Source: Campylobacterota bacterium
GTDB lineage: Bacteria; Campylobacterota; Campylobacteria; Campylobacterales; Sulfurovaceae
DNA: 37,100 nucleotides
Direction: 5' to 3'
Assembly: GCA_034722955.1 (NCBI GenBank)
Contig: JAYEOM010000093.1
Location: 1 to 37,100, forward strand
This document shows positions 1,786 to 24,098 of the stretch, in pieces (positions within the stretch are counted from its first letter, which is position 1; each line of letters starts with the position of its first letter). The position numbers and the translations under genes are program-made. The notes beneath the pieces were generated by a model. That model was given only the letters and a program-made list of their open reading frames with translations. It was not told where the DNA came from and ran no database searches.

Positions 1786-2583
1786 ATGGAGCTTCGTAAT
1801 GTTATCGGTTTGGGTGTTGCAGGAAATTTTGCACACCATTTGGAACAGGCTGGAGAGTTAAAAGATTTTGAAAATGTTGTGACGAAAGAGCCTGATGCAC
1901 CTAAGGGAATATTTCCTTTTTATCTCCCTGGGCATGAGAGCTTTCTAGGTCTATATCCTGTTGAGAGAGAGACTTTGACTCTCCCTGACTATGAAGCAAA
2001 TGCACAGGTAGAGCCTGAGGTAGCTATACACTTTGATATCCAGTATGATGAGAACCACAAAGTAGTAGGGCTTGATGCAAAGGCATTTACCTCCTTCAAC
2101 GACTGTACCATACGAAAAGAGGGTGCCAAAAAGATATCGGAAAAGAAGTCATGGTCTAGTGACTCCAAGGGGATAGGGCATAAATGGATAGAGATAGACC
2201 AATTTTCAGCAGGTGGTATCATGGATCACTATCGTCTATGCTCTTTTGTGGAGAGGGATGGCCTGCTGCATCCGTATGGCGTGGATGCTCCTCTAGTAGG
2301 ATACTCCTATTTTTATGAAAAACTTGCAGATTGGCTCATCGAAAAGATGAATGAACAGGAGGATTTTGGTCCGCTCGAAGATATCAGTATGCACCTGAAG
2401 GATTGTGGCTATCCGACTGAAGCACTTATTACGATCGGTGCTACGGCTTATGCTGATTTTGGTGAGAACCACTATCTTCAGAGTGGAGATGAGATCTTTG
2501 TGGTCACATATGATGCCCGAGAGAGTCTTGGAGATCTTGAAGCTTCAAAAGATAAAGTCATACTGCATCAAAAGGTAGTGTAG
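1786..2583 (+). CDS. DUF5718 family protein
   Basis: N-terminal GLGVAGNFA.HLEQAGE, APKGIFPFY, Q.EPEV and FNDC.IR....KISEKK.W. AAGGAG RBS. Confidence 0.75.
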   Translation: MELRNVIGLGVAGNFAHHLEQAGELKDFENVVTKEPDAPKGIFPFYLPGHESFLGLYPVERETLTLPDYEANAQVEPEVAIHFDIQYDENHKVVGLDAKAFTSFNDCTIRKEGAKKISEKKSWSSDSKGIGHKWIEIDQFSAGGIMDHYRLCSFVERDGLLHPYGVDAPLVGYSYFYEKLADWLIEKMNEQEDFGPLEDISMHLKDCGYPTEALITIGATAYADFGENHYLQSGDEIFVVTYDARESLGDLEASKDKVILHQKVV

Positions 2584-2585
2584 AT

Positions 2586-3323
2586 ATGAGAAGCTCTATC
2601 CTTTTACTATGGGCTACTCTACTCTTTACAGGATGCAATCAAGGGGAATCACAATCAGTTAAAATGGTGTCAGATACTTATCACAAGGTACCTACCGGAT
2701 ACACTGCTACTCCAACTGCCGAGCCTAAAAAGACACGAGAAGAGAGAGAGGATATCCACAGAAAAGAGATCGAAATAGCAAAACTGAAACGAGAAGAGAA
2801 TCTGCAGCTAGCCAAGATAGAAGCAGATACCCAAGAGCATGTGAAGCGTATCGAAGTAGAGGCTATGAAGCATAAAATATTGGTAGACAAAGAGGTGAGT
2901 TTGGAGGCACAAAAGATAGAAAAAGAGATCGCCGCCTCAAGAGAGACTACTTTGATCCAGACAAAAGAGAGAGATCTGCTTATTGATCAGATCATCATCG
3001 CTGTTGTCGCTGGTATACTACTCATCACTCTATTGGTATACTATCTGATGCAGCATAAAAAAAGAGTGTTTGAGATGAAGATTCAAGAGGAGAAACTCAA
3101 ACATGAAGCACATATGCAAGCGACTACACAGCATCATGAAAAGATATCTAGAGTCTTGGAGATCATCGCCGATAAAGATACAGATAGTTATGTTAAAAAT
3201 GAGCTATTGGGTATCTTGAAGGAGCCACAAGATGAGCAGGTACTCATAGAGTATTCCCCCACAGAGGATGAGGTTCAAAAAGAGGAGGAGTCTCAAGAGA
3301 AAGAGGTTAAAAACCCCCTCTAG
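2586..3323 (+). CDS. Putative lipoprotein with coiled coil and an internal TM helix
   Basis: Lipobox LFTG-C, E/K-rich heptads, hydrophobic IIIAVVAGILLITLLVYYL and an acidic tail. Confidence 0.65.
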   Translation: MRSSILLLWATLLFTGCNQGESQSVKMVSDTYHKVPTGYTATPTAEPKKTREEREDIHRKEIEIAKLKREENLQLAKIEADTQEHVKRIEVEAMKHKILVDKEVSLEAQKIEKEIAASRETTLIQTKERDLLIDQIIIAVVAGILLITLLVYYLMQHKKRVFEMKIQEEKLKHEAHMQATTQHHEKISRVLEIIADKDTDSYVKNELLGILKEPQDEQVLIEYSPTEDEVQKEEESQEKEVKNPL

Positions 3324-3335
3324 TTTTACGACTTC

Positions 3336-4466
3336 CTACTCTCCTGTGAACCACCCTTTGACACGATCAAAGGCGTTTTCCAATGAACTTTTGTGAGGAG
3401 TACTCTCTACCCCAAAGCTCTCTTGGAGTCTGTTGAGTAGATCCTCCTGCTCATCGTTGAGTTTTTTGGGCAGAACGAGCTGTACTTGAGCGATCAGGCG
3501 ACCTTTTCTGCCACCATGGACATCTGCTACACCTTCACCCTCAAAGACAAAATGCTCTTTATCTTTAGTTCCTGGTTTTAGATCGAGCTGAAGTTCACCA
3601 TCTAGTGATGGTATAGTGATACTCTCCCCCAAAATAGCCTGCGTGAAAAATACAGGCACTTCGATATATATATCGCTGCCGTTTCGTACAAAGTTCTCAT
3701 CCTCTTCGACATAAAAAGTGAGGTATAGATCACCTCTGCGACCATGACGATCTTCATTGCCATACCCTTGAACTCTGAGCCTATTTCCACTATCTACTCC
3801 CGCAGGGATATTGATAGTGATGGTCTCATCTACGCTGTTGTACCCTTTACCGTGGCAGCTTTCACACTTTTCAACGATCTTCTTGCCTTCACCTTTACAC
3901 TTGGGGCAAGTTTGGGCGAAAGTCATAGGTCCCTGTCGCATAACTACCTGTCCTTGACCTTTACAGTAGTCACAGGTTGTAAGCTTACCATCTTTGGCAC
4001 CGGTACCTTTACATCCACTACAAGGTGTTTTGTAAGTGATCTCTATCTTCTTCTCACAGCCAAATATAGCTTCATGAAATTCCAATGGCTGTTCGATCTC
4101 AAAGTCAAGAGCATATTTTTGGCTTGGGTCTCTTCTAGTCTGCCCAAAACCGCCGCCAAAGCCACCTCCACCGCCAAACATAGAGTTGAAGATATCTCTC
4201 ATATCATCCATCCCGCCGCCAAAGCCACCGCCACCTTGGCGATCGAGTCCCTCTTTGCCGTAACGGTCATAGATAGCTCTCTTATCTTCATCGCTGAGTG
4301 CTTGATAAGCTTCATTGATCTGCTTAAATTTATCTTCAGCCTCTTTGTCATCTGGATTGCGGTCAGGATGGTACTTCATCGCTAGTTTACGATAGGATTT
4401 TTTCAGTTCTGTACCATTACAGTCTCTACTGACCTCTAAAATCTCATAATAATCAATTTCTGTCAT
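3336..4466 (-). CDS. dnaJ: Chaperone DnaJ
   Basis: J domain with HPD, G/F-rich linker, four CxxCxGxG repeats and C-terminal domain. Confidence 0.97.
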
Positions 4467-4579
4467 TGCTCTACTCTCATTAATAAATAATTTTCGCGAA
4501 TTTTACCATAATTTTGTTCATTTTTGTTTTGCATAGAGTTTGATAAGATATAATACTATATCAAATTGAAGGAGATGGA

Positions 4580-4870
4580 GTGGTTACTCATATAGTATTG
4601 TTCAAATTTAAAGAGAAAGATAGAGAGGCTAATGTCCAAAAGGCTGGTCAAATGCTAAGTGCTCTGCTAGAGAGTGTGCCTGAACTCAAAAGTATAGAGG
4701 TTGGTACAAACTTTTCAAATGAGGAGCGTGCTATGGATCTGAGCATTATCACAACCTTTGATGATAGAGATGGACTAGAGCAGTATGTCATGCACACTGA
4801 ACATATGAAAGTTGTAGAGTTTATCAAGAGTGTAGTTGAGGAGTCTAAAGTAGTAGACTATATAAGTTAG
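4580..4870 (+). CDS. Dabb (stress-responsive A/B barrel) protein
   Basis: GTG start with AAGGAG RBS. HIVLFKFK...F.D.D.L..Y..H..H...VVDY. Confidence 0.88.
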   Translation: MVTHIVLFKFKEKDREANVQKAGQMLSALLESVPELKSIEVGTNFSNEERAMDLSIITTFDDRDGLEQYVMHTEHMKVVEFIKSVVEESKVVDYIS

Positions 4871-4882
4871 GAGCATGGTCTA

Positions 4883-5452
4883 TTGAAGCGGTACAAGATC
4901 GAACCATTTGAAAATCTAGTAGAGGCATTTCAGTCTCTCCCTAGTATAGGAAAAAAGTCGGCAATCCGACTGGCATATCATCTAGTGATGGAAGATGGCT
5001 TTGGGGCGATGAAGTTAGCACATGCCATCGAAACAGGTGTCAATGAGGTGCAGCGTTGCAGTCAGTGTCACAACATGAGCGAAGATGAGCTATGTGCGAT
5101 CTGCACAGATGATCAACGCGACATCAGTACGCTCTGTATCGTACAGAGTGCCAGGGATGTTTTGACGATAGAGGAGAGTGGGGAGTTTAGAGGGGTCTAT
5201 TATGTACTCTCTCGTGTCGAAGATCTGGATGAGTCTCATCTCAAGAGCGTAGCTAGAGATGCAGATGAGGTGATCTTTGCTTTTCCTCCTAGTATAGCTA
5301 CAGATACTATGATCTTATATATCGAAGATAAGTTAGAGGGGTTGGGTCTTCATTTTACCAAGATAGCACAAGGGGTTCCGACAGGAGTCGATCTGGAAAA
5401 TATAGATGTAGTATCACTCACGCGTGCTATGGAGGCTAGAGTAAAAGTATGA
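4883..5452 (+). CDS. recR: Recombination mediator RecR
   Basis: LPSIGKKSA.RLA, C4 zinc finger (CSQC...CAIC), Toprim region and IAQGVPTG..LE..D. Confidence 0.95.
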   Translation: MKRYKIEPFENLVEAFQSLPSIGKKSAIRLAYHLVMEDGFGAMKLAHAIETGVNEVQRCSQCHNMSEDELCAICTDDQRDISTLCIVQSARDVLTIEESGEFRGVYYVLSRVEDLDESHLKSVARDADEVIFAFPPSIATDTMILYIEDKLEGLGLHFTKIAQGVPTGVDLENIDVVSLTRAMEARVKV

Positions 5453-6627
5453 ATCTGTCTATCATCAAACCGATCAAGAGTATTCTTTTGATCATACTCT
5501 TCTCTGCTATGCTATGGGGTGTAGATATCACCCCTGCTGCCAAACGCCCAGATCTCTATCTGCCACTTCTAAAAGGAAAGAGTGTCGCCTTGGTGGTCAA
5601 CCACTCCTCCTTGGTGGGTAGAGAACATTTAGTTGATTTTTTACTAAAAAATGGTGTAGATGTTCGTAAGATATTTGCTCCCGAACATGGGTTTCGCGGC
5701 AGAGCAGATGCAGGTGCATATGTCAAAAATAGCCGAGACACCAAAACGAATCTGCCCATCGTCTCACTCTATGGAAAACATAAGAAACCAACCAAGCAGG
5801 ATTTGGCAGGGATCGATCTGATCCTCTTCGATATCCAGGATGTGGGAGTACGGTTCTACACTTACCTCTCTACGCTTCACTATGTCATGGAGGCAGGTGC
5901 CCAGCAGAATACCCCTCTGATCGTACTCGATCGTCCCAATCCCAATGGGCACTATATCGATGGTCCTCTCCTTGAGAAAAAATACCGCTCATTTGTCGGT
6001 CTCGATCCTGTACCTGTCGTCTATGGTATGACGATCGGAGAGTATGCCCGTATGCTCAATGGAGAGGGTTGGCTCAAGAGAGGAGTAAAAGTCAAACTTA
6101 CTGTTATACCCCTAGCCAACTATACACACGATAGTTTTTACTCCCTGCCAATCAAGCCATCACCCAATCTGCCCAATGATAGAGCTATCACACTCTACCC
6201 CTCTCTAGCATTTTTCGAGGGAACAGTTATGTCAGCAGGGAGAGGTACAGAAAAACCTTTTCAACTCTATGGCGCACCAAAATATAGAGTAAAAAAGTTC
6301 TCTTTTGTCCCACAGTCAAGAGCAGGAGCCAAATATCCCAAGTTTAAAGGAGAGCGATGTTATGGGGTTGATTTGAGCAGGGATAGCTTCAAAAAAAAGC
6401 GTGCAAAAAGAGAGCTAAATCTTTCATATCTCCGGGATGCTTATGCCAAATATCCCGATAAAAAGAGTTTTTTTCTAAAAAACAGATTTATAGATAGGCT
6501 TGCAGGCAGCGATCAGCTGCGAAAGCAGATCTTGGCAGGTACTTCGGAGTCTGCTATCCGTAAAAGTTGGCAGAAAGATTTAAATAGATTTAAGAGGATA
6601 CGAAAAAAATATTTGCTCTATCCTTAA
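5449..6627 (+). CDS. namZ: Exo-beta-N-acetylmuramidase NamZ (DUF1343, GH171), secreted
   Basis: APEHGFRG, SLYG, FDIQDVGVRFYTY, VLDRPNP, YGMTIGE, PSPNLP and GRGT motifs. Signal peptide. ATGA overlap with recR. Confidence 0.92.
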   Translation: MNLSIIKPIKSILLIILFSAMLWGVDITPAAKRPDLYLPLLKGKSVALVVNHSSLVGREHLVDFLLKNGVDVRKIFAPEHGFRGRADAGAYVKNSRDTKTNLPIVSLYGKHKKPTKQDLAGIDLILFDIQDVGVRFYTYLSTLHYVMEAGAQQNTPLIVLDRPNPNGHYIDGPLLEKKYRSFVGLDPVPVVYGMTIGEYARMLNGEGWLKRGVKVKLTVIPLANYTHDSFYSLPIKPSPNLPNDRAITLYPSLAFFEGTVMSAGRGTEKPFQLYGAPKYRVKKFSFVPQSRAGAKYPKFKGERCYGVDLSRDSFKKKRAKRELNLSYLRDAYAKYPDKKSFFLKNRFIDRLAGSDQLRKQILAGTSESAIRKSWQKDLNRFKRIRKKYLLYP

Positions 6628-6647
6628 CCCAGAAAAAAAGGAATTTT

Positions 6648-7313
6648 ATGACAAAAATTATGTTTATTTGCAGTTTGCTATTGAGTGCAAGCTTGAGTGC
6701 AGAGACAGTGAAGATCATCAATAAGCCGATAGATTTTGGTTCAAAACGAGTAGAGATGACCAAAACATATATCGCACAGCACTATGGCAAGAGAGTGAAA
6801 GATATCACGATCGTACCAAAGATCATCGTGCTGCATTGGACAGCAGAGATGAGCTTTGAGAAATCATTTAACAGACTCAAACCCGAAAAGCTCCTGAGTG
6901 ACCGCAAAGATATAGCAAAAGCGAGTCTCCTCAATGTCTCAGCACACTATATGGTAGATCGTGATGGGACTATCTATCGCCTGATGCCTGATAACCATAT
7001 GGCACGACATGTTATAGGGCTCAACTACTCTACTATAGGTATAGAGAATATAGGAGGCAGAGACAACAAGCAAGATGATCTCACCTCTGCACAGCTCAAA
7101 TCCAATATCGCACTTGTCAAGTATCTAAAACAGAAGTACCCTACTATAGAGTATCTCATAGGACACCATGAGTATCGGCAGATGGAGAAGAGTTCTCTTT
7201 GGCTAGAGAGGGACAAGGGATACAGAACAGTCAAGAGCGATCCAGGGAGACGGTTTATGAGTGATGTCCGCAGGGCAGTGAAGCCTCTGCATCTGAAAGA
7301 GCCACCAAAATAG
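6648..7313 (+). CDS. N-acetylmuramoyl-L-alanine amidase (Amidase_2/PGRP-like), secreted
   Basis: IVLHWT, SAHYMVDRDG, A.HV.G.N..IGIEN, IGH.E and KSDPG (Zn ligands H/H/D). Sec signal peptide. Confidence 0.9.
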   Translation: MTKIMFICSLLLSASLSAETVKIINKPIDFGSKRVEMTKTYIAQHYGKRVKDITIVPKIIVLHWTAEMSFEKSFNRLKPEKLLSDRKDIAKASLLNVSAHYMVDRDGTIYRLMPDNHMARHVIGLNYSTIGIENIGGRDNKQDDLTSAQLKSNIALVKYLKQKYPTIEYLIGHHEYRQMEKSSLWLERDKGYRTVKSDPGRRFMSDVRRAVKPLHLKEPPK

Positions 7314-7320
7314 AGAAGAG

Positions 7321-8844
7321 ATGAATAGTACATTTACCCCTGTAGACTGGATGATATTTGGCTCCTATTTTCTGATACTTATTCTCACCTCTGTGGTACT
7401 AAGTCGCGTGAAACTGGAGACGACTCGTGACTATTTCGTAGGGTCTAACTCGATGCCGATGCTAGCAGTAGCTATCTCAGTATTGGCCACTTCTCAGTCT
7501 GCGGCTACATTTTTGGGTGGACCAGAGTACTCTTATGGCAAAGATTTGACCTTTTTGGGTTTCTATTTTTCTGCTTTTATTGCTGTGATTTTTGTCGCTT
7601 ATCTGCTGATACCGCGATTTTATGCTATCAAGGCAGTCACAGTCTATGAACTGCTTGAGAAGCGTTATGGTGCAAGTGCCAAGAAGCAGGCAGGGGTGAT
7701 GTTCTTGATAGGACGGTTATTTGCCTCAGGGGCTAGACTCTATATCGGTGCATTGGCTATCTCGATGATACTCTTTATGGATATCGCCCCGACCCATATC
7801 GCACTCTCTATTATGATTTTGATGTTGGGTGCATTGGCTTATGCCTATTTTGGTGGTATCAAGTCGGTGATTTTGAGTGATGTCATTCAGGCGATGACCT
7901 ATATAGGAGCGGCTATAGCTGTATTGATCTTTCTCTTCTATTCGCTCGATGCAGACCTCTCTACGATGATCGATATCCTCAGCAGAGAGAACAAACTCCA
8001 AGTTGTTAACTTCTCATTTGACCATTTTGAGGGTGGGTTTAACTTCTATACCATTCTTGTTGGTTGGCTCCTGCTAAATATCGCTGCTTATGGACTCGAC
8101 CAAGATATGACTCAGCGTGTACTTAGCTGTAGAGACAAGTCGGAGGGAGCAAAGTCGCTGATATACTCTATCATCTTTACCATCCCTGTAGCACTGCTGT
8201 TTTTGGTGATAGGTCTACTGCTATATCTCTACTATCAACACCCTGAACTCTCAGGTTTTGAGGGAGCAGTAGACAAGAGCTTTCAGGGTGACAAAGTCAC
8301 TATCATGATGTACTATATCCTCAATGAGATGCCAGAGGGACTGCGTGGGCTGGTGACAGTAGGAGCCATCGCCGCCGCACTCTCCAGCACCAACTCAGTA
8401 CTAGGTGCGATGAGTTCTGTAGCGATCGAAGATCTCTATCGTCCCTGGAGACTATCCAGAGGAGAAGCCTCAGAGAAGCACTTCCTCAAAGCAGGAAAGA
8501 TGGGTGTACTGCTTTTTGCTCTACTGCTAAGCATGATGGCGATGCTGAGCTACTACTGGCAGCACGCAACCCAGTCACACCTGTTGACTTTTGCACTAGG
8601 CGTAATGGCGTTTGCCTATGCAGGACTGCTAGGAGTCTACGGAGCAGCGATCTTTACAGGCAGAGGAAGCAAGAGAACTGTACTCTGGGCACTGATCGGT
8701 GGATTTATGACAGTACTCTTTCTGCAGTCCTATGTTTTGGCATTTTTTGGCATAGAGTGGAAGATAGGTTTTTCATGGCAGTTGGTTTTGGGTACTGCTG
8801 TATCGTTTGGGGTTATGATGTTGGGGAGTGATGCCGAAAGATAG
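7321..8844 (+). CDS. Sodium:solute symporter (SSS/SLC5, YidK/NIS-like); candidate MurNAc/anhMurNAc importer
   Basis: About 13 TM segments. DYFVG...SV.AT..SA.TFLG.P, GGIKSVI.SD.IQ, DQDMTQR and AAALSS motifs. The substrate is inferred from context only. Confidence 0.9.
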   Translation: MNSTFTPVDWMIFGSYFLILILTSVVLSRVKLETTRDYFVGSNSMPMLAVAISVLATSQSAATFLGGPEYSYGKDLTFLGFYFSAFIAVIFVAYLLIPRFYAIKAVTVYELLEKRYGASAKKQAGVMFLIGRLFASGARLYIGALAISMILFMDIAPTHIALSIMILMLGALAYAYFGGIKSVILSDVIQAMTYIGAAIAVLIFLFYSLDADLSTMIDILSRENKLQVVNFSFDHFEGGFNFYTILVGWLLLNIAAYGLDQDMTQRVLSCRDKSEGAKSLIYSIIFTIPVALLFLVIGLLLYLYYQHPELSGFEGAVDKSFQGDKVTIMMYYILNEMPEGLRGLVTVGAIAAALSSTNSVLGAMSSVAIEDLYRPWRLSRGEASEKHFLKAGKMGVLLFALLLSMMAMLSYYWQHATQSHLLTFALGVMAFAYAGLLGVYGAAIFTGRGSKRTVLWALIGGFMTVLFLQSYVLAFFGIEWKIGFSWQLVLGTAVSFGVMMLGSDAER

Positions 8845-8965
8845 ATTTGCACAAGAGCTAAAAAATAGAAATTTGACGAAAAATCAAATAGTAGAAAATC
8901 CTATTTTACTTGATAATGGAAAAAAGATGAAATGTAAAAATATTGTCAATGAGCAGATAGTATGA
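8831..8965 (+). CDS. 44-aa bridging ORF or gene remnant (not in ORF track)
   Basis: GGGGAG before ATG 8831. Reads MPKDRFAQELKNRNLTKNQIVENPILLDNGKKMKCKNIVNEQIV*. Its stop overlaps the anmK start (ATGA). Confidence 0.35.
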   Translation: MPKDRFAQELKNRNLTKNQIVENPILLDNGKKMKCKNIVNEQIV

Positions 8966-10047
8966 AAACCAAAGAGCTCTACATAGGTCTCATGTCCGGT
9001 ACTAGTCTGGATGGTGTGGATGCGGCACTGTGTATGATAGATGAGGTGAGTTGTGAGTTGGTTGCCTCTTTGGAGTATCCTATTCCTGATGAACTAAAGA
9101 TAGAGATACTTGCAGCCATCGAGGGTCAAGTCCGATTGGCTAAAGTGGGGGAGTTGGATCACCGTTTGGGTCTTCTGTTTGCTAAGGCGGTCAATGCACT
9201 GCTGGAGCAAGAGCATTTGAAGCCTGCTGACATCAAAGCTATTGGCTCTCATGGGCAGACAGTGTGGCATGAGCCTGCGGGGAGTTATCCGTTCACTATG
9301 CAGTTGGGAGATCCAAATATCATTGCAGTTAGAACAGGTATATCTGTTGTGGCGGATTTTCGGCGTAAAGATGTGGCTTTGGGAGGGCAGGGTGCACCTT
9401 TTGCTCCTGCTTTTCATAAGTTTTTGTTTGGTGACATGGGAGACGATATAGCTATTGTCAATATTGGAGGTATGGCAAATATCACTCTCCTCGGTGAGAA
9501 GCTGATAGGGTATGATACGGGTTGTGGCAATGTGCTGATGGATATGTGGATAGCTAAATGCAATGGTTTGGAGTATGATAGGGATGGTCTATGGGCGAAA
9601 AGTGGCAGGGTTGACTATCCTCTGCTAGAGAGGATGCTTGATGATGATTACTTCCGACAAGAGTATCCGAAAAGCACAGGTAGAGAAAAATTCAACGCAG
9701 AGTGGCTAGAGAGTATCATCAGTCAAGTCCAGAGCGGTGGAGAGTGGCAAGCTGATATCCAAAGAACACTCCTTGAGCTAACTGCTATCACTATCTCCAA
9801 TGAAGTGCTGAAGTTCCAGAGAGATATTTTGCTTCTTTGCGGAGGCGGAGCGAAAAACAGTTTTTTGGTAGAGCGTATCAAAGCTATGATACCAAACATC
9901 CAAGTAGTGATCGCTGCCAATGCAGATAGTTTGGAAGCGATGGCATTTGCTTGGCTGGCATATAAGCGAATCCATAAAGAACCTGTCAATCTCAAAGATG
10001 TGACAGGGGCAAAAGAGAATAGTATATTGGGGGGGATTTATGAATAA
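8962..10047 (+). CDS. anmK: Anhydro-N-acetylmuramic acid kinase
   Basis: IGLMSGTSLDGVD, GSHGQTV.H, DFRRKD.A.GGQGAP, NIGG.ANIT, PKSTGRE and EA.AFAWLA. Confidence 0.96.
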   Translation: MKTKELYIGLMSGTSLDGVDAALCMIDEVSCELVASLEYPIPDELKIEILAAIEGQVRLAKVGELDHRLGLLFAKAVNALLEQEHLKPADIKAIGSHGQTVWHEPAGSYPFTMQLGDPNIIAVRTGISVVADFRRKDVALGGQGAPFAPAFHKFLFGDMGDDIAIVNIGGMANITLLGEKLIGYDTGCGNVLMDMWIAKCNGLEYDRDGLWAKSGRVDYPLLERMLDDDYFRQEYPKSTGREKFNAEWLESIISQVQSGGEWQADIQRTLLELTAITISNEVLKFQRDILLLCGGGAKNSFLVERIKAMIPNIQVVIAANADSLEAMAFAWLAYKRIHKEPVNLKDVTGAKENSILGGIYE

Positions 10048-10978
10048 GGTCAAATCATGGTTGGAGAGTGTCGGGGTGGAGGGAGAACTGGAAATTGCAT
10101 CGGTTGATGCGAGTGCCCGTGCCTATTATCGGCTGAGAGAGAGCATCCATAGTAGCATCGTGATGGATGCATCGAAGCAGAAAGAGAGTATCAAGCCATT
10201 TATCGAGATGACACACCGACTTAGGGAGGCTGGTGTGAGGGTACCAAAGATTTTTGTTGTCAATCCTCAGGAGGGATTTTTACTGCTTGAAGATATAGGT
10301 GATACTCATCTGTTGCAAAAGCTAGAGGATAATACTTTTGAGGGTTTCTATGAGAAGGCGATGGATAGTATCATCAAAATCCAACAAGCTGACATAGAGG
10401 AACTGCCACCTTATAATACCGAATTTTTACGCAGTGAAATGGAGTTGATGCAGGAGTGGTATCTCGAAAAGTACCTCAATAGAGCATTTGATGATGGAGA
10501 GAAAAAGGTGATATCCGATACTATAGAGAAGGTGATCGAAGTGGTATTGTCTCAACCTCAGGGCTTTTTTGTGCATCGCGATTTTCATTCACGCAACCTG
10601 ATGCTAACACCCCAGGATGAGATCGTGGTGATTGATTATCAGGATGCCAGAGTAGGTGCGGTCACTTATGATCTGGTGTCACTGCTTCGTGACTGCTATA
10701 TCTCCTTTGACCCTGTGAAAATTGAGAAACTGGCACTGCTCTTTAGAGACAAGCAAGGCTTGGATACAGATGATGAAACTTTTATGAGATGGTTTGATTT
10801 TATGGGATTGCAACGGCATATCAAGGTTTTGGGAATTTTTGCAAGATTGTATCTGCGAGATGGCAAAGATGGCTACTTGGATGATATCCCCCAGACACTG
10901 AAATATGTGAAGGATGTGAGTGCAAAACACGAAGAGATGAAACCATTGATGAAATTATTTGAAAAGTTAGGAGTGTAA
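10040..10978 (+). CDS. amgK: Anomeric MurNAc/GlcNAc kinase AmgK (APH-like phosphotransferase)
   Basis: DASAR.YYR, LLLEDIG, VHRDFHSRNLM, IDYQDA..G...YDLVSLLRDCY and QRHIKVLGIFARL..RDGK. Adjacent to murU. Confidence 0.92.
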   Translation: MNKVKSWLESVGVEGELEIASVDASARAYYRLRESIHSSIVMDASKQKESIKPFIEMTHRLREAGVRVPKIFVVNPQEGFLLLEDIGDTHLLQKLEDNTFEGFYEKAMDSIIKIQQADIEELPPYNTEFLRSEMELMQEWYLEKYLNRAFDDGEKKVISDTIEKVIEVVLSQPQGFFVHRDFHSRNLMLTPQDEIVVIDYQDARVGAVTYDLVSLLRDCYISFDPVKIEKLALLFRDKQGLDTDDETFMRWFDFMGLQRHIKVLGIFARLYLRDGKDGYLDDIPQTLKYVKDVSAKHEEMKPLMKLFEKLGV

Positions 10979-10979
10979 A

Positions 10980-11654
10980 ATGAGAGCGATGATACTAGCA
11001 GCAGGTTTGGGAACACGGATGCGTCCTTTGACGGATCATACCCCAAAACCGCTCCTTGAGATAGGTGGGATTCCCCTGATCGTATGGCATATAGAGCGAT
11101 TGGTACATGATGGATTTCACGATATTGTCATCAATATCGCACATCTGGGATATCAGATACCCAAAGCACTTGGAGATGGCTCTGAGTGGGGGGCAAGGCT
11201 CTCATATTCGGATGAGCAGGAGGAGGGGGCTTTGGAGAGTGCCGGTGGAATCATCAAGGCACTGCCTCTTCTGAGTGATGATACATTCTTGGTGGTCAAT
11301 GGTGATATATGGTGTGAATATGATTTTGATAGAGATAAAATACTACCCCAAGGTACTCTGGCACACTTGATCCTCGTGCCAAATCCTGATCACAACATAG
11401 AGGGTGATTTTTCACTACGGGGTACTGTAGTAGGTGATGGCGGAGGAGATAGATATACATTTTCCGGTATAGGATACTACTCACCCAAGCTATTCGAGGG
11501 GTTGGCTTATGGCAAGAGAGCCTTAGCCCCTCTGCTGAGAGAGGCTATGAGAGAGGGGAGGGTAAGTGGTGAACTCTTTGAGGGGGAGTGGAGAGACATC
11601 GGTACACCAGAGAGATTGGAAGCACTCAATATCCATCTCTTTTCGGAGGGGTAG
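10980..11654 (+). CDS. murU: MurNAc-alpha-1-phosphate uridylyltransferase
   Basis: AMILAAGLGTRMRPLTDHTPKPLL, LESAGGI, VNGDI, LVPNP.HN..GDF, TFSGI and W.DIGTPERL. Confidence 0.93.
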   Translation: MRAMILAAGLGTRMRPLTDHTPKPLLEIGGIPLIVWHIERLVHDGFHDIVINIAHLGYQIPKALGDGSEWGARLSYSDEQEEGALESAGGIIKALPLLSDDTFLVVNGDIWCEYDFDRDKILPQGTLAHLILVPNPDHNIEGDFSLRGTVVGDGGGDRYTFSGIGYYSPKLFEGLAYGKRALAPLLREAMREGRVSGELFEGEWRDIGTPERLEALNIHLFSEG

Positions 11655-11677
11655 CCTAAGCAAAACATAGAGTCCAA

Positions 11678-11732
11678 TAGGAGCTGTGACTTTAGCCTCA
11701 GCCATCAGGTGGAGCTAAAGCACCACTTCCTA
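11678..11732. repeat. Inverted doublet of REP-like hairpins (REPIN-like)
   Basis: tagga-gctgtga-ctttagc-ctcagc on + and tagga-agtggtg-ctttagc-tccacc on -. Each is a short stem around (c)ttta(g). Confidence 0.55.
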
Positions 11733-11735
11733 AAA

Positions 11736-11781
11736 TCCTTATTTTATTGGCATTGCCGAGGACGGATGGGAACGAGCGAAA
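11736..11781 (+). repeat. Dispersed 46-47-bp repeat, copy 1
   Basis: Matches the reverse complement of 36793-36839 with one mismatch and one 1-nt gap. Confidence 0.85.
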
Positions 11782-11857
11782 TCAACTTGTTGTCACCAAT
11801 AGTGGGTAGCCTTAGCTTATTAAGAGGTTGTATGAATTAGGGTTGACATATCAGTCA

Positions 11858-12283
11858 CTATTGAGCTACAAACTCCTCACTACTCATCAGAGTTATCCCA
11901 TCAGAAACAAATCTTTTATCATTTGATAAAATTAAATCACAAGAAGATTTTTTAGCCATGATGTATTGAATGGTATCTTCTAGGTCTGTGAAATTTCTAT
12001 TTTTCTTCATAAATTTGCAACTCTCTTCTATCTCTTTGTTTCCAAATTCAATGACTATACAGAGTTCATTGATATCGAGTATGGAGTCTAGTGCTTCCAT
12101 CTTTCCTTTTTTTGAGAGTATATAATATAGGGTAGTTATGATATCACAAGAGGTAAAAATATTAATATCTTTTTCTATAAGTAGCCTAGATATAGCTTCT
12201 GCACTCTCTTCGTGAAAAGGTCGATTTCCATCGTACATATCAAGGATAATATTAGCATCTAAAAAAACTCTTTTATAGTTCAC
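11858..12283 (-). CDS. PIN-domain (VapC-like) toxin
   Basis: VFLDANIILD, TTLYYIL, DLEDTIQY and ILSNDKRF. The likely GTG start at 12283 overlaps the antitoxin end (ORF track start 12313). Confidence 0.88.
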   Translation of the reverse strand: MNYKRVFLDANIILDMYDGNRPFHEESAEAISRLLIEKDINIFTSCDIITTLYYILSKKGKMEALDSILDINELCIVIEFGNKEIEESCKFMKKNRNFTDLEDTIQYIMAKKSSCDLILSNDKRFVSDGITLMSSEEFVAQ

Positions 12284-12512
12284 GATTTGCCTTGATAGAT
12301 TGGATAGACTCATCTGTAAACAATCCTGTTGCTGAACCTTTTAAGCGATTAAAAGCTTTGAGACGCTTTTTTATTTTGATCTCTTTGTATCTCTCCTCTA
12401 TCATCTCTTGCATGAGTGAAGTCATAGATTGTTGGGTCTCTTTGGCTAACTCTTCGAGATGTAGAGCCACATCTTTTTCAAATACAAAGTTCTTTCTTAC
12501 CGTCACTACCAT
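12273..12512 (-). CDS. Putative antitoxin (RHH-like)
   Basis: 79 aa with an N-terminal strand VRKNFVF then two helices. AAGGAG RBS. Overlaps the PIN gene. Confidence 0.78.
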   Translation of the reverse strand: MVVTVRKNFVFEKDVALHLEELAKETQQSMTSLMQEMIEERYKEIKIKKRLKAFNRLKGSATGLFTDESIQSIKANREL

Positions 12513-12716
12513 GTGTTACTCCTTTTTATGTATATACTATTATGTAACAATAATAACACATCATAAAGGGAATGTCAAGTGCATCTCAATATAAAAACCC
12601 AAATAGCCAAAGTGGTATCTTGTTGCCACTTCCTATCTCTATATCATCAGCAACAACAAATGAGTTTGGTACATCTTTCTAGTGACAAGTTAAGTCTGTT
12701 TTGATATAGTTTAATT

Positions 12717-13019
12717 ATGAAAAAAGTAATTATAGCTATTAGTTTGACTGCAATTTTAATATTTTGTTTGGTATGGTTGGATATACAGAATGACAAAGAG
12801 AATATTTTAATTGTGAAAAAAACTTCCTATGCTTTTGATGATTGGGAATGTGGCTATAGATGTACACAAACAAAATTTAAAGTTTTTGAAGATGAACGCT
12901 ATAATGTAGAACGCATTAGATATGGAAAAGATTTTATGGCAATTCAAATAAAATCAAAAAATGATATATTAGGCTGGGTGATTTTAGATGAGAGTTATGA
13001 GGTTATCAATAAAAAGTGA
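12717..13019 (+). CDS. Hypothetical membrane-anchored or exported protein (possibly SH3-like)
   Basis: N-terminal hydrophobic helix and C-terminal GWV. AT-rich. Confidence 0.6.
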   Translation: MKKVIIAISLTAILIFCLVWLDIQNDKENILIVKKTSYAFDDWECGYRCTQTKFKVFEDERYNVERIRYGKDFMAIQIKSKNDILGWVILDESYEVINKK

Positions 13020-15027: not shown

Positions 15028-15843
15028 CTAACTCTCTAAGTAGTTTGCCACTGCATCTTCGTCGTTGGTGTGTGGCAGTATGATGTCTGCTCTCTCTTTG
15101 ACCTCATCTAGAGCATTTTGTACCGCTATAGCTGTGCCTGCTTTTTCAAACATCCCTAGATCATTGATACTGTCACCAAATACAGTAAAGTCCCTCAACT
15201 CTCTACCTAGATACTCTGCTACTGTCTGCAGGGCATGGGCTTTGTCTCCGTCTGGGTGCAGGATGGTGAGGAAGTAGCCATTTGAGTACTTTTCTGGGGA
15301 GAGTTTGTACTCTAGTTCATCACCAAAAATTACTCTGAAGTGTTCTGTGAGCGGTTGTAGTGTTTCGTGATCTCCGAAGTAGACTAGCTTGAGGTTCATC
15401 TCCATGGCTCTGATCTCTCTGCACTCCTGCATGCGCGGATCATTTTTGTAATTATCCAGTACACTGTTTTGGTGTGAATTTAGTGTAGTTGGAAATAGAA
15501 ATGCCTCATTGAGCTCCATATCTCTCAGAGCAATGATGAAAGGGTATATACCAAACTTCGCCCCCTCATCTATGATCGCATCTCCTAGTGCTTTGTTGAC
15601 TAGCTTGAGGTCAATAAGCTCTTTCTGGGGTGAGACGACCATGCTGCCATCGAGTAGTATCATCGGCGCATGGAGATGTAGTTTGTCTAGAAACTGGTGA
15701 GTTTTTGTATAGCTTCGTGCTGTGGCGACAGAGAGGGTAGCGTGCTTGGTTTTGTCATTCCAAACTCGTCTGCTAAAGCTGCTGACACTCTGGTCTGTTC
15801 TGAGAAATGTATGGTCAAGGTCGGTGATATATATAGGTTTCAT
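15028..15843 (-). CDS. Cof-type HAD-IIB hydrolase/phosphatase
   Basis: DLDHT (DxD), ATAR, K(AHAL), VFGDSIND..MF and NDEDAVA. Confidence 0.9.
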   Translation of the reverse strand: MKPIYITDLDHTFLRTDQSVSSFSRRVWNDKTKHATLSVATARSYTKTHQFLDKLHLHAPMILLDGSMVVSPQKELIDLKLVNKALGDAIIDEGAKFGIYPFIIALRDMELNEAFLFPTTLNSHQNSVLDNYKNDPRMQECREIRAMEMNLKLVYFGDHETLQPLTEHFRVIFGDELEYKLSPEKYSNGYFLTILHPDGDKAHALQTVAEYLGRELRDFTVFGDSINDLGMFEKAGTAIAVQNALDEVKERADIILPHTNDEDAVANYLES

Positions 15844-22485: not shown

Positions 22486-23109
22486 ATGGATCTACCTAGA
22501 GTTGAGAGAGAGTTGAAGAGGAGATGTTGTTATCCCTATCGATGGGGCAGGAGGCAGTCGGATCTTTGGGATAGGCAGACAAATTTTATATATACCACTT
22601 ATAGTATGAGTATGCTTCTCAAGAGAGTAGAAGGTTTTGATCAGGCTCTGTGTGATTATGCTCTGAATAGGTGGTATAACTTTTGGTCTGCGATGGCGAT
22701 TGAGGATATTTTTGCTTCGCATGATAGTGTTGAGCCAAATCGGAATAGTTTTGATAAATTGGTAGATTTCCATATAGAAGAGATCCCTTTTGATCATAAA
22801 ACTTCTATATTTCCGAAAGGTTTTGGTCGATCCTATGAGTATGCTAGAGAGCATGAGGATGAGTTGATCGAGTGGCTCTATACCAACCAGAGCCAGCAGG
22901 GTAGGAAGCATCTGAAAAATAGACTCTTTATTATGCTTTATGATGGAGAGACGATGCAGCACTGGAAGCTGAAATCTGAGATAATGCTCATCAAAGATGA
23001 GATAGATCAGTATGTTGAGGAGTTTAGTGAAAAACAGCTCCATAAGTTTGATTTTGGTGATGGTGAAATCTTTTCAGATATGATATGGGTCAGAAGAGGA
23101 GTGTCATGA
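22486..23109 (+). CDS. Hypothetical protein, putative PD-(D/E)xK restriction endonuclease
   Basis: E..F...LVDF....PFDHKTS pattern. ATGA overlap with the methyltransferase. GAGG RBS. Confidence 0.6.
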   Translation: MDLPRVERELKRRCCYPYRWGRRQSDLWDRQTNFIYTTYSMSMLLKRVEGFDQALCDYALNRWYNFWSAMAIEDIFASHDSVEPNRNSFDKLVDFHIEEIPFDHKTSIFPKGFGRSYEYAREHEDELIEWLYTNQSQQGRKHLKNRLFIMLYDGETMQHWKLKSEIMLIKDEIDQYVEEFSEKQLHKFDFGDGEIFSDMIWVRRGVS

Positions 23110-24098
23110 ATTATATAGGATCCAAGCTCAAGTTATCTAATTTTTTAGAAGAGAGTATCAAAGAGAGTGTTGGCAGTATCGAAGAGGCTACATTTTGTGA
23201 TATTTTTGCAGGCACCGGCATAGTCGGTCGCAAGTTTAAAACTATGACTAAAAAAGTGATAGCCAACGATATAGAGTACTATAGCTATGTGTTGAACCGA
23301 AACTATATAGGAAACAGCAGAAGATTTGAGAAGGAGTCATTGATTGATGCATTGAATGAGATGGAGGGTATAGAGGGATTTATATATCAGCACTACTCTC
23401 TAGGCGGAGATGGTCAGAGGCAGTATTTTAGTGATGAAAATGCTAAAAAGATAGATGCAATGCGTCAAAAGATTGAAGAGTGGAGAGCAGAAGAGAGTAT
23501 CGATGAGGATCAATACTTTTTTCTTTTGGCTAGCTTGATTGAGTCTGCAGATAAAGTAGCAAATACGGCTTCTGTTTACGGTGCTTATCTCAAGCATTTG
23601 AAGCGATCTGCACAACAAAAACTTCTCTTAAAACCGGCATCCTTCGATATCTATGGAGCCGGACATGAAGTCTACCATGAGGATGCCAATACTCTCATCT
23701 CTAAGATATCTGGTGATATTCTATATATGGATCCGCCATACAACCAACGACAGTATGGTGCCAACTACCATATACTCAATACAATCGCTAGATATGATAC
23801 ATTTGTACCTCAGGGAAAAACTGGCTTAAGGTCATATATCCGTTCTGACTATTGTAAAAAATCTGTAGTTAAAAGTAGTTTTGAAGCACTGATAGAGAGA
23901 GCAGATTTCAACTATATCTTTCTCAGCTATAACAATGAAGGTATAATGCGATCAGAAGAGGTTGAAAGTATCATGTGTAAATATGGCAACTATAGGCTTG
24001 AAACAACTCAATATCAACGATTTAAGGCTGATAAGAGTGAAAACAGAAACCACAAAGCAGATGCCACTACAGAGTATCTGCATATTTTGGAAAAATAA
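23106..24098 (+). CDS. DNA adenine-N6 methyltransferase (D12 class), M.NlaIII/M.HpyI-like, predicted target CATG
   Basis: MNYIGSKLKL, DIFAGTG, ADKVANTASVYGA, LYMDPPYN.RQYGANYH, LSYNNEG and RFKADK..NRNHKA..T.EYLHILEK. True start at 23106 rather than 23085. Confidence 0.9.
   Translation: MNYIGSKLKLSNFLEESIKESVGSIEEATFCDIFAGTGIVGRKFKTMTKKVIANDIEYYSYVLNRNYIGNSRRFEKESLIDALNEMEGIEGFIYQHYSLGGDGQRQYFSDENAKKIDAMRQKIEEWRAEESIDEDQYFFLLASLIESADKVANTASVYGAYLKHLKRSAQQKLLLKPASFDIYGAGHEVYHEDANTLISKISGDILYMDPPYNQRQYGANYHILNTIARYDTFVPQGKTGLRSYIRSDYCKKSVVKSSFEALIERADFNYIFLSYNNEGIMRSEEVESIMCKYGNYRLETTQYQRFKADKSENRNHKADATTEYLHILEK

Follow-up and report, generated by a model that had tools for sequence, protein, structure and literature searches.

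The window analysed here, a 37,100-nucleotide stretch of contig JAYEOM010000093.1 from a bacterium of the Sulfurovaceae (Campylobacterota; assembly GCA_034722955.1), contains six genes, namZ, an Amidase_2 gene, a sodium:solute symporter (SSS) gene, anmK, an amgK-like gene and murU, that lie head to tail on the plus strand between positions 5449 and 11654 and very probably form a salvage route for sugars of the N-acetylmuramic acid (MurNAc) type. The successive intergenic distances from namZ to murU are +20, +7, +117, -8 (an overlap) and +1 nt, and the genes would be co-transcribed. An earlier reading of this DNA, the original prediction, had placed the same six open reading frames (ORFs) at exactly these coordinates on this strand, and Pfam and NCBIfam models back each of its gene names (Table 1). 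That the arrangement is not due to chance follows from its recurrence in dozens of related genomes, described below. A promoter and terminator scan of positions 4300-12500 was uninformative, since its 18 promoter-like and 4 terminator-like sites are close to the counts from shuffled sequence (16.7 and 4.5), and the spacer between the SSS gene and anmK held no promoter or terminator match beyond the shuffle level.

Table 1. Positions, strands and profile matches of the cluster genes and of two genes discussed with them (positions are those of the window).
Feature	Positions	Strand	Profile match or description
recR (upstream neighbour)	4883-5452	+	TIGR00615 182 bits, cut-off 162.6
namZ	5449-6627	+	PF07075 (NamZ_N) 266 bits; PF20732 (NamZ_C) 122 bits
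Amidase_2 gene	6648-7313	+	PF01510 74.5 bits
SSS transporter gene	7321-8844	+	PF00474 (SSF) 98.8 bits, cut-off 22.8
Spacer between SSS gene and anmK	8845-8961		117 nt, AT-rich
anmK	8962-10047	+	NF007139 465.7 bits, cut-off 367; PF03702 455 bits
amgK-like gene	10040-10978	+	PF01636 (APH) 85.9 bits; NF045759 (AmgK) 240.8 bits
murU	10980-11654	+	NF045761 296.8 bits, cut-off 250
Cof-type HAD-IIB phosphatase gene	15028-15843	-	PF08282 136 bits; TIGR00099 123 bits, cut-off 137

The first two products are wall hydrolases that appear to be exported. NamZ, whose two domains both exceed their cut-offs and which matches PDB 4jja (E 1e-112), is a predicted exo-beta-N-acetylmuramidase (GH171) that would free MurNAc from peptide-free glycan ends. 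The second protein, with the N terminus MTKIMFICSLLLSASLSA/ETV, matches the MurNAc-L-alanine amidase structures 6ssc and 6srt (E 3e-9) and reaches the Amidase_2 fold model, while scoring 31 bits against a cut-off of 143 on the AmpD equivalog; it is a putative exported MurNAc-L-Ala amidase of the AmpD/AmiD/T7-lysozyme fold, predicted to remove stem peptides in the periplasm. In its exported form we assume that it would resemble AmiD. The signal peptides that the original prediction had ascribed to both proteins are seen as hydrophobic N-terminal cores, with 10-residue Kyte-Doolittle maxima (a crude heuristic, not a trained predictor) of 3.06 for NamZ, at residues 12-21, and 2.60 for the amidase, compared with 0.9-1.9 for AnmK, AmgK and MurU. 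For NamZ the secretion signal is called by hydropathy only, and both hydrolases would on this evidence reside in the periplasm.

The last three products would act in the cytoplasm of the same route. AnmK and MurU pass their equivalog cut-offs and are predicted to act, respectively, as an anhydro-MurNAc (anhMurNAc) kinase yielding MurNAc-6P and as a MurNAc-alpha-1-P uridylyltransferase yielding UDP-MurNAc. For the gene between them, the AmgK model NF045759 is the top NCBIfam match by a wide margin and the APH fold is reached; the AmgK equivalog cut-off is missed, and the gene is therefore filed as amgK-like. Its product is predicted to be an anomeric MurNAc/GlcNAc (N-acetylglucosamine) kinase that turns MurNAc into MurNAc-alpha-1-P, and the pairing of amgK with murU is retained in 41 of the 51 Campylobacterota loci in which the downstream region could be assessed.

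At the centre of the cluster lies the candidate importer. PF00474 covers residues 38-461 of the 507 of the SSS protein and is carried by all 120 homologues among the matches listed; this general SSF model is the only one reached, the score on TIGR00813 being 160 bits against a cut-off of 184. A whole-library search at E<=1e-30 returned 627 cluster representatives as homologues. Look-ups of three clusters gave the names Rheinheimera, Planctomycetota/Phycisphaerales, Scalindua and a Bacteroidota metagenome-assembled genome (MAG), with no Tannerella; a profile search with the clade that contains the Bacteroidota sequence found only MAGs of Ignavibacteria, Calditrichaeota and Bacteroidota, and Bacteroidota SSF clusters came up as leads in the Atlas (0.98). 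Among proteins of known structure the nearest is SiaT, the symporter of Proteus mirabilis for Na+ and N-acetylneuraminic acid (PDB 5nv9, E 8.7e-37), which by sequence shares the family and fold of the SSS protein; the monocarboxylate transporter SMCT1 comes second among the PDB matches.

The comparison with SiaT, for which residue roles are those given in the accessible text of PMC5931594, indicates that the ion-binding and carboxylate-binding contacts align with identical or similar residues. At the Na2 site, A56, A352, S355 and S356 align with SiaT A56, A339, S342 and S343, and at the Na3 site the counterparts are D187 (SiaT D182), N358 (S345) and S359 (S346). The carboxylate-binding Ser60 and Thr63 of SiaT correspond to S60 and T63, and S58, the counterpart of SiaT Thr58, is also conserved. 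Across 21 family members S60, T63, R139, D187, D260, Q265 and R266 are invariant; in an alignment of 40 sequences S60, T63, R139, Q265 and R266 remain invariant, with D187 and D260 conserved in at least 90%. The two proteins are nevertheless only distant kin: SiaT Gln82 and Gln250 are replaced by Y82 and A256, Arg135 is not kept, and the genomic context of the SSS gene is muramic acid rather than sialic acid, although the presumed substrates are both N-acetylated sugars that bear a carboxylate. This residue pattern is consistent with Na+-coupled transport of an N-acetylated sugar acid, while falling short of proof.

Evidence for the role of the transporter also comes from its gene neighbourhood. 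Using a search pattern built from a 10-sequence SSS alignment, we collected 80 loci from contigs of one genome per species (75 from Campylobacterota, 4 from Vibrio and 1 from Neptunicella) and labelled their ORFs by phmmer with the window proteins as queries; three loci in which the contig end cuts the SSS ORF were dropped, leaving 72 from Campylobacterota. Among the 51 of these with at least 3.5 kb downstream, AnmK follows the SSS gene in 44 (43 by script, plus L058, which has an over-long ORF call) and AnmK, AmgK and MurU all follow in 39, with an SLT_2 lytic transglycosylase gene after murU in 16 of the 39. AnmK starts a median of -7 nt from the SSS stop (n=48), the genes overlapping or abutting in most relatives, unlike the 117 nt found in the window. 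Directly upstream and on the same strand, 51 of the 65 loci with at least 1.2 kb of upstream sequence carry a wall hydrolase gene (12 Amidase_2, 18 GH3-Amidase_2 fusions and 21 GH3), whose product has a hydrophobic N terminus in 41 cases. From these counts the conserved core is NagZ and/or amidase, SSS, AnmK, AmgK and MurU, with a lytic transglycosylase frequently coming next. NamZ is by comparison an accessory addition found mainly in the genus of the window: it lies directly upstream of the SSS gene in 3 further loci and adjoins it in only 6 of 58. The original prediction had counted namZ as a member of the salvage operon, which holds for the window and is not a general property of the cluster.

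The fused hydrolases merit a separate description. In Sulfurimonas and Sulfuricurvum a GH3 (NagZ)-Amidase_2 fusion of about 555 aa with a signal-like N terminus precedes the SSS gene; one such gene lies at L039:8333-10000 (+), and 19 further loci have one. The protein looks like a one-polypeptide periplasmic 'muropeptide stripper'.

Co-occurrence across genomes leads to the same partners. In the 61 Sulfurovaceae genomes sampled (60 others, evenly chosen, together with that of the window) we found SSS in 25, MurU in 27, AnmK in 26 and NamZ in 14. MurU and AnmK are present in all 25 genomes with the SSS gene, which occurs in none of the 34 that are without MurU, and the two MurU genomes in which it is missing are fragmented assemblies, in one of which a contig begins 678 nt before anmK. 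All 14 NamZ-bearing genomes are MurU-positive, corresponding to 14 of the 27 with MurU; the NamZ profile used also detects the NamZ of a Bacillus subtilis control genome. AmpG exceeds its cut-off in 0 of the 61. One genome that also has SSS, AnmK and MurU contains an AmpG-like match of the major facilitator superfamily (G151:C1:845944-847017), which scores 127 bits against a cut-off of 350. In a sample of 100 other genomes from across the phylum, 2 have both SSS and MurU, with a few kb between them, and neither is found in the other 98. Within the Sulfurovaceae the split between presence and absence of SSS and MurU runs along genera, of which five have the genes and six do not, and therefore reflects few independent events.

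The remainder of the genome, which is 2.51 Mb in size and 99.97% complete, offers no familiar alternative for entry. It contains no match to the AmpG model TIGR00901 at E<=1e-3 and no MurP-type phosphotransferase system (PTS), so that the known doors for muropeptides and for MurNAc are both missing; its single PTS EIIC is a GlcNAc-type IICB (539 bits on TIGR01998, 30 bits on the MurP model). The best match to MurQ reaches 35.6 bits against a cut-off of 302, and searches of the same genome returned no BadF-type MurK, no LdcA and no Mpl above its cut-off, while MurA is present. A permease of the HGSNAT/DUF5009 type, as may occur in Tannerella forsythia, was also sought in this genome and discarded, there being no DUF5009 and only a sub-cut-off HGSNAT_cat score of 20 bits. 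The only GH3 protein is a NagZ-like one of 363 aa with a signal-like N terminus, so that the glycosidase and the amidase, both cytoplasmic in Escherichia coli and Pseudomonas, look as if they were exported here. AmpG-independence, as originally predicted, is thus borne out by the lack of AmpG, a MurP-type PTS and MurQ, and the search for ampG, nagZ and murP that had been suggested yielded only the apparently exported NagZ. The salvage route is one for the sugar only, and is anabolic.

The same transporter family is found outside the Campylobacterota in association with a different set of muramic acid genes. In Vibrio proteolyticus, NagZ and an RpiR regulator are divergent from SSS-BadF kinase-AnmK-MurQ, and Neptunicella marina has SSS-BadF kinase-MurQ-NamZ, close to which lie genes for an RpiR regulator and a D-lactate-dehydrogenase-like protein. 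Among 400 other, evenly chosen Pseudomonadota genomes an SSS orthologue (at least 50% identity) occurs in 10, of which 9 have NamZ, MurQ, AnmK or a BadF kinase next to it or no more than about 3.5 kb away. A clade known from metagenomes and only about 31% identical to the SSS protein of the window has an adjacent BadF-type kinase in 33 of 45 assessable loci, and NamZ in 17 of the 19 loci flanked on each side by 6 kb or more. The BadF-type kinases beside these SSS genes match the solved MurNAc/GlcNAc kinase 8zo3 (E 4e-33 and 1e-15). The survey of SSS neighbourhoods that the original prediction had called for therefore returned anmK, amgK and murU in Campylobacterota, and murK-like genes, murQ, anmK and namZ in Gammaproteobacteria and the distant metagenome clade. 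Such ties to muramic acid enzymes in at least three gene architectures would be difficult to account for if the family did not handle a muramic acid sugar.

Other features of these loci were noted in passing. Two of the nine Pseudomonadota loci carry, beside the SSS gene, fusions of 615-626 aa between a BadF-type kinase and a MurQ-like SIS etherase (L187:5190-7037 (-) and L189:8611-10491 (+)), and two Pseudomonadota loci have PF00144 (beta-lactamase/transpeptidase-like) genes beside NamZ-SSS (L191:9823-10998 (-) and L193:9821-11068 (-)). In other loci, genes for alanine racemase and for D-lactate-dehydrogenase-like proteins are found at the flanks of the cluster.

We propose the following mechanism, in which the cluster is most likely an AmpG-independent salvage route whose wall fragments are trimmed outside the cytoplasm and rebuilt into UDP-MurNAc within it. 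Fragments released by lytic transglycosylases would be dismantled in the periplasm by the exported Amidase_2 protein, by the NagZ-like GH3 protein, whose gene lies at another place in the genome, and, in this genus, by NamZ, to give free GlcNAc, peptides, anhMurNAc and MurNAc. The SSS protein, as a SiaT-like symporter of the LeuT fold, would then carry anhMurNAc and/or MurNAc inward, probably together with Na+. AnmK would open anhMurNAc to MurNAc-6P, a phosphatase encoded outside the cluster would return MurNAc, AmgK would convert this to MurNAc-alpha-1-P and MurU would produce UDP-MurNAc, which could rejoin wall synthesis past the MurA and MurB steps. GlcNAc would probably enter through the single GlcNAc-type PTS of the genome.

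Synteny, co-occurrence, the missing alternative permeases and conservation of the SiaT sites, lines of evidence that are genomic rather than drawn from transport, support the original proposal that the SSS protein is the importer of MurNAc or anhMurNAc, and we consider it probable that one or both are its substrates. Coupling to Na+ is also favoured, with somewhat less assurance. Since the SSS gene of Campylobacterota is coupled most tightly to anmK, and AnmK in a cell lacking AmpG would have no other source of substrate, anhMurNAc is taken as the main cargo in this phylum. The lytic transglycosylase, NagZ and amidase that the operon often contains are enzymes expected to convert GlcNAc-anhMurNAc-peptides to free anhMurNAc. 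In the genus of the window, the MurNAc that NamZ sets free would make a second cargo, and MurNAc is the likely cargo where the neighbours are MurK, MurQ and NamZ. Scavenging of the walls of neighbours and a fosfomycin tolerance arising from bypass of MurA, which is encoded by this cell, are speculation.

A number of observations weigh against this scheme. Synteny predicts a pathway and not a substrate, and the salt-bridge residue Arg135 of SiaT aligns with Ala135, although R132 (nearly invariant) and R139 (invariant) stand one helical turn to either side of this position. The signal peptide calls are limited by the heuristic nature of the hydropathy scores and by roughly placed ORF starts. The AmgK-like protein is under the NCBIfam cut-offs (NF045759, 240.8 against 550 bits; NF045698, 94.7 against 500). 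Seven of the 51 Campylobacterota loci (L015, L023, L025, L028, L043, L061 and L069) have no Mur neighbour, and the tenth Pseudomonadota locus, likewise without one, lies among phosphate-transport genes. Related genomes are kin, and the counts therefore overstate the number of independent events. AmpG is kept alongside the SSS gene in Vibrio (no AmpG match was found in Neptunicella), which means that the SSS protein is not always a replacement for AmpG. Finally, the three HAD_2 proteins of the genome score at most 108 bits on MupP (cut-off 359), and related clusters contain no HAD gene; with no MupP above cut-off, the AnmK branch is left without a named step.

Candidates for this step can nevertheless be put forward. 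The HAD_2 protein that scores highest on MupP fits the Gph model instead, and the three Gph-like HAD proteins are candidates for the MurNAc-6P phosphatase. Another lead is the Cof-type HAD gene (Table 1), which is convergent to the cluster and lies 3.4 kb beyond murU. Its homologues are convergent within 50 nt of murU in 5 genomes of the family and within about 1.4 kb in 8 more, and they occur in 13 of the 19 loci whose sequence extends 6.8 kb or more past murU, among them those of the Arcobacteraceae, in which the gene overlaps the end of murU. This convergent position is kept across Sulfurovaceae, Sulfurimonadaceae and Arcobacteraceae. Weaker homologues are also present in genera that lack MurU, and the placement may therefore be inherited gene order; the Cof-type protein is a possible stand-in for MupP, and a weak lead. 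A MupP-like gene was also looked for among 18 ORFs inserted in related clusters, all of which proved unrelated (HepT/MNT toxin-antitoxin, Zn peptidase, VanY, GGDEF/EAL, HtrA-like and others).

If the SSS protein instead imported another solute derived from peptidoglycan, such as GlcNAc, GlcNAc-anhMurNAc, a stem peptide or amino acid, or D-lactate, (anh)MurNAc would have to enter by a different, unrecognised carrier. The match to SMCT1 and the presence of D-lactate dehydrogenase-like and alanine racemase genes in the vicinity of the SSS gene of certain Gammaproteobacteria lend this idea some support, as do the relationship of the adjacent BadF-type kinases to enzymes that also phosphorylate GlcNAc and the non-PTS GlcNAc permeases described for Stenotrophomonas maltophilia in the accessible text of PMC13055268. 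The genome of the window, however, already has a PTS for GlcNAc; without MurQ, the cell would neither form nor consume D-lactate by this pathway, and neither LdcA nor Mpl is at hand for the reuse of peptides. The solved SSS carriers, moreover, move small single solutes. The tightest partner of the gene, often overlapping it, is anmK, the only known substrate of whose product is anhMurNAc, a sugar with no other entry into an AmpG-less cell. We therefore regard import of a different wall solute as unlikely. That the protein has no connection to wall recycling at all, being a proline-, pantothenate- or acetate-type symporter held in place by inherited gene order, we consider extremely improbable: the best NCBIfam score is on the generic SSS model (TIGR00813, as above), no specific model being met, and the orthologues L015, L025 and L190 have no Mur neighbours, but the linkage to MurNAc genes recurs in differing orders, with either the anabolic AmgK/MurU or the catabolic MurK/MurQ set, and spans Campylobacterota, Gammaproteobacteria and the clade of only 31% identity. 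In the phylum sample, too, SSS and MurU coincide exactly: of the genomes that carry either gene, three of three have both, as against none of the 98 others.

A further alternative retains MurNAc as the cargo and changes its origin, such that the cluster would mainly scavenge foreign wall, with the MurNAc released by NamZ as the true substrate and AnmK as a side branch. NamZ and the amidase do look exported, and periplasmic NamZ enzymes of T. forsythia are described as feeding a MurNAc permease (bioRxiv 10.1101/2021.12.02.470905, accessible text); the distant SSS clade, furthermore, has MurK-like kinases and NamZ as its partners, and AnmK only seldom. Within Campylobacterota, however, NamZ is the least conserved part, both among loci and among MurU-positive genomes, whereas AnmK and often the SLT_2 lytic transglycosylase belong to the core, which points to anhydro-sugars produced by transglycosylase action, and with MurA present the cell is not a MurNAc auxotroph. 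We hold scavenging as the main function to be very unlikely, while noting that self-recycling and scavenging are not mutually exclusive. Import of (anh)MurNAc by the SSS protein, as originally predicted, is the best-supported reading.

One related system is that of T. forsythia, in which, as proposed in the accessible parts of the published work (PMC5790795, PMC7670621, PMC5388701, bioRxiv 10.1101/2021.12.02.470905), periplasmic NamZ releases MurNAc that is imported by the non-PTS inner-membrane permease MurT, encoded by Tanf_08375. Its ampG-namZ1-murT-murK-murQ cluster and that of the window both have namZ close to a permease gene, and in both organisms AmgK/MurU salvage would lead from MurNAc to UDP-MurNAc. 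According to the same descriptions T. forsythia uses AmpG, has MurK and MurQ and is without AnmK and MurA/MurB, no amidase being known from them; the genome of the window, conversely, has no AmpG, MurK or MurQ, and has AnmK, MurA and an apparently exported amidase in the operon. The SSS family resembles MurT in sharing operons with the MurNAc enzymes NamZ, MurK and MurQ, as seen in Vibrio, Neptunicella, nine of the ten Pseudomonadota orthologues and the metagenome clade, while its partners in the window are NamZ, amidase, AnmK, AmgK and MurU rather than the MurT-type MurK and MurQ. In the available text of PMC5790795 MurT is assigned both to the 'sodium symporter superfamily' and to the 'major facilitator superfamily', and NagF of S. 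maltophilia, reported to be 35% identical to MurT, is described as a protein of nine transmembrane segments with an HGSNAT domain. These published descriptions disagree on the family of MurT, the similarity to NagF suggesting an HGSNAT-like fold different from that of SSS.

In Pseudomonas, the accessible text of PMC5371407 describes a route from anhMurNAc to UDP-MurNAc by way of AnmK, MupP, AmgK and MurU. Recycling in that genus, which comprises AmpG, NagZ/AmpD/LdcA, AnmK, MupP, AmgK and MurU, shares its AnmK, AmgK and MurU steps with the cluster described here. Intact muropeptides there enter by AmpG and are dismantled in the cytoplasm, whereas in the window genome AmpG was not found, the NagZ-like protein and the amidase look exported, the SSS gene occupies the place of AmpG in the operon, and MupP above cut-off, LdcA and Mpl are all missing. 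The murQ-murR-murP-amiE-nagZ-namZ cluster of B. subtilis, in which we take secreted NagZ, amidase and NamZ to free MurNAc before uptake, follows a similar external logic; uptake by the MurP PTS and catabolism by MurQ distinguish it from the window genome, which has neither protein and a predicted anabolic fate for the sugar. The system described here differs in its carrier, in lacking AmpG, in having an amidase and a NagZ (or a fusion of the two) that look exported, and in the presence of AnmK in the operon; the enzymes and their logic are already known.

Around the cluster, the stop codon of recR overlaps the start of namZ by 4 nt. The gene is possibly co-transcribed with namZ, although it lies outside the pathway, and the order RecR-NamZ-amidase-SSS is seen again in loci L012-L014. 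Directly after murU and on the opposite strand is a PIN-domain gene (11858-12313 (-)), in an AT-rich stretch (GC 0.31 at 12001-13000) with small unassigned ORFs, which may be a toxin-antitoxin remnant. Further along the window, a gene for a D12-class N6-adenine DNA methyltransferase (23085-24098 (+)) overlaps the end of an unassigned ORF of 207 aa (22486-23109), and the two (22486-24098) may form a restriction-modification pair. Upstream, at 1786-3323 (+), a DUF5718 gene is followed after 3 nt by a 245-aa ORF with no match to a Pfam or NCBIfam family.

Few routes are known by which free muramic acid sugars cross the inner membrane, namely the MurP PTS and the MurT of Tannerella, with AmpG serving for disaccharides. 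In line with the original statement that no characterised SSS transporter for MurNAc was known, we found no published description of one in the literature covered, most subscription journals and the bioRxiv supplements lying outside the search. A term search of a 2021 review of prokaryotic SSS carriers (PMC7918813) gave no mention of muramic acid, a term search of an encyclopedia of Shewanella sugar pathways gave no SSS muramic acid transporter, and a 2026 paper on mycobacteria speaks, in its accessible text, of MurNAc uptake 'by an unknown transporter' (PMC13691567). A conserved SSS carrier linked to anmK-amgK-murU or to murK-murQ-namZ is a concrete candidate for the MurNAc uptake step.

Taken more broadly, the SSS clade could represent a widespread and uncharacterised group of Na+-coupled (anh)MurNAc permeases that are unrelated in fold to MurT and MurP. 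Together with exported NagZ and amidase (often fused), NamZ and a lytic transglycosylase, these would constitute a fully periplasmic dismantling system. In Gram-negative bacteria without AmpG, from more than one phylum, it would take over from AmpG, AmpD and a cytoplasmic NagZ, and it would feed UDP-MurNAc synthesis in Campylobacterota or MurQ catabolism in Gammaproteobacteria and soil lineages. Our confidence in this wider proposal is evenly divided. The recycling design predicted here is one in which muropeptides are dismantled before import, not after. If the assignment is correct, it would add a new class of substrate to the SSS family, provide a transporter for MurNAc-probe labelling in new organisms and explain how the wall is recycled in environmental Campylobacterota that lack AmpG.

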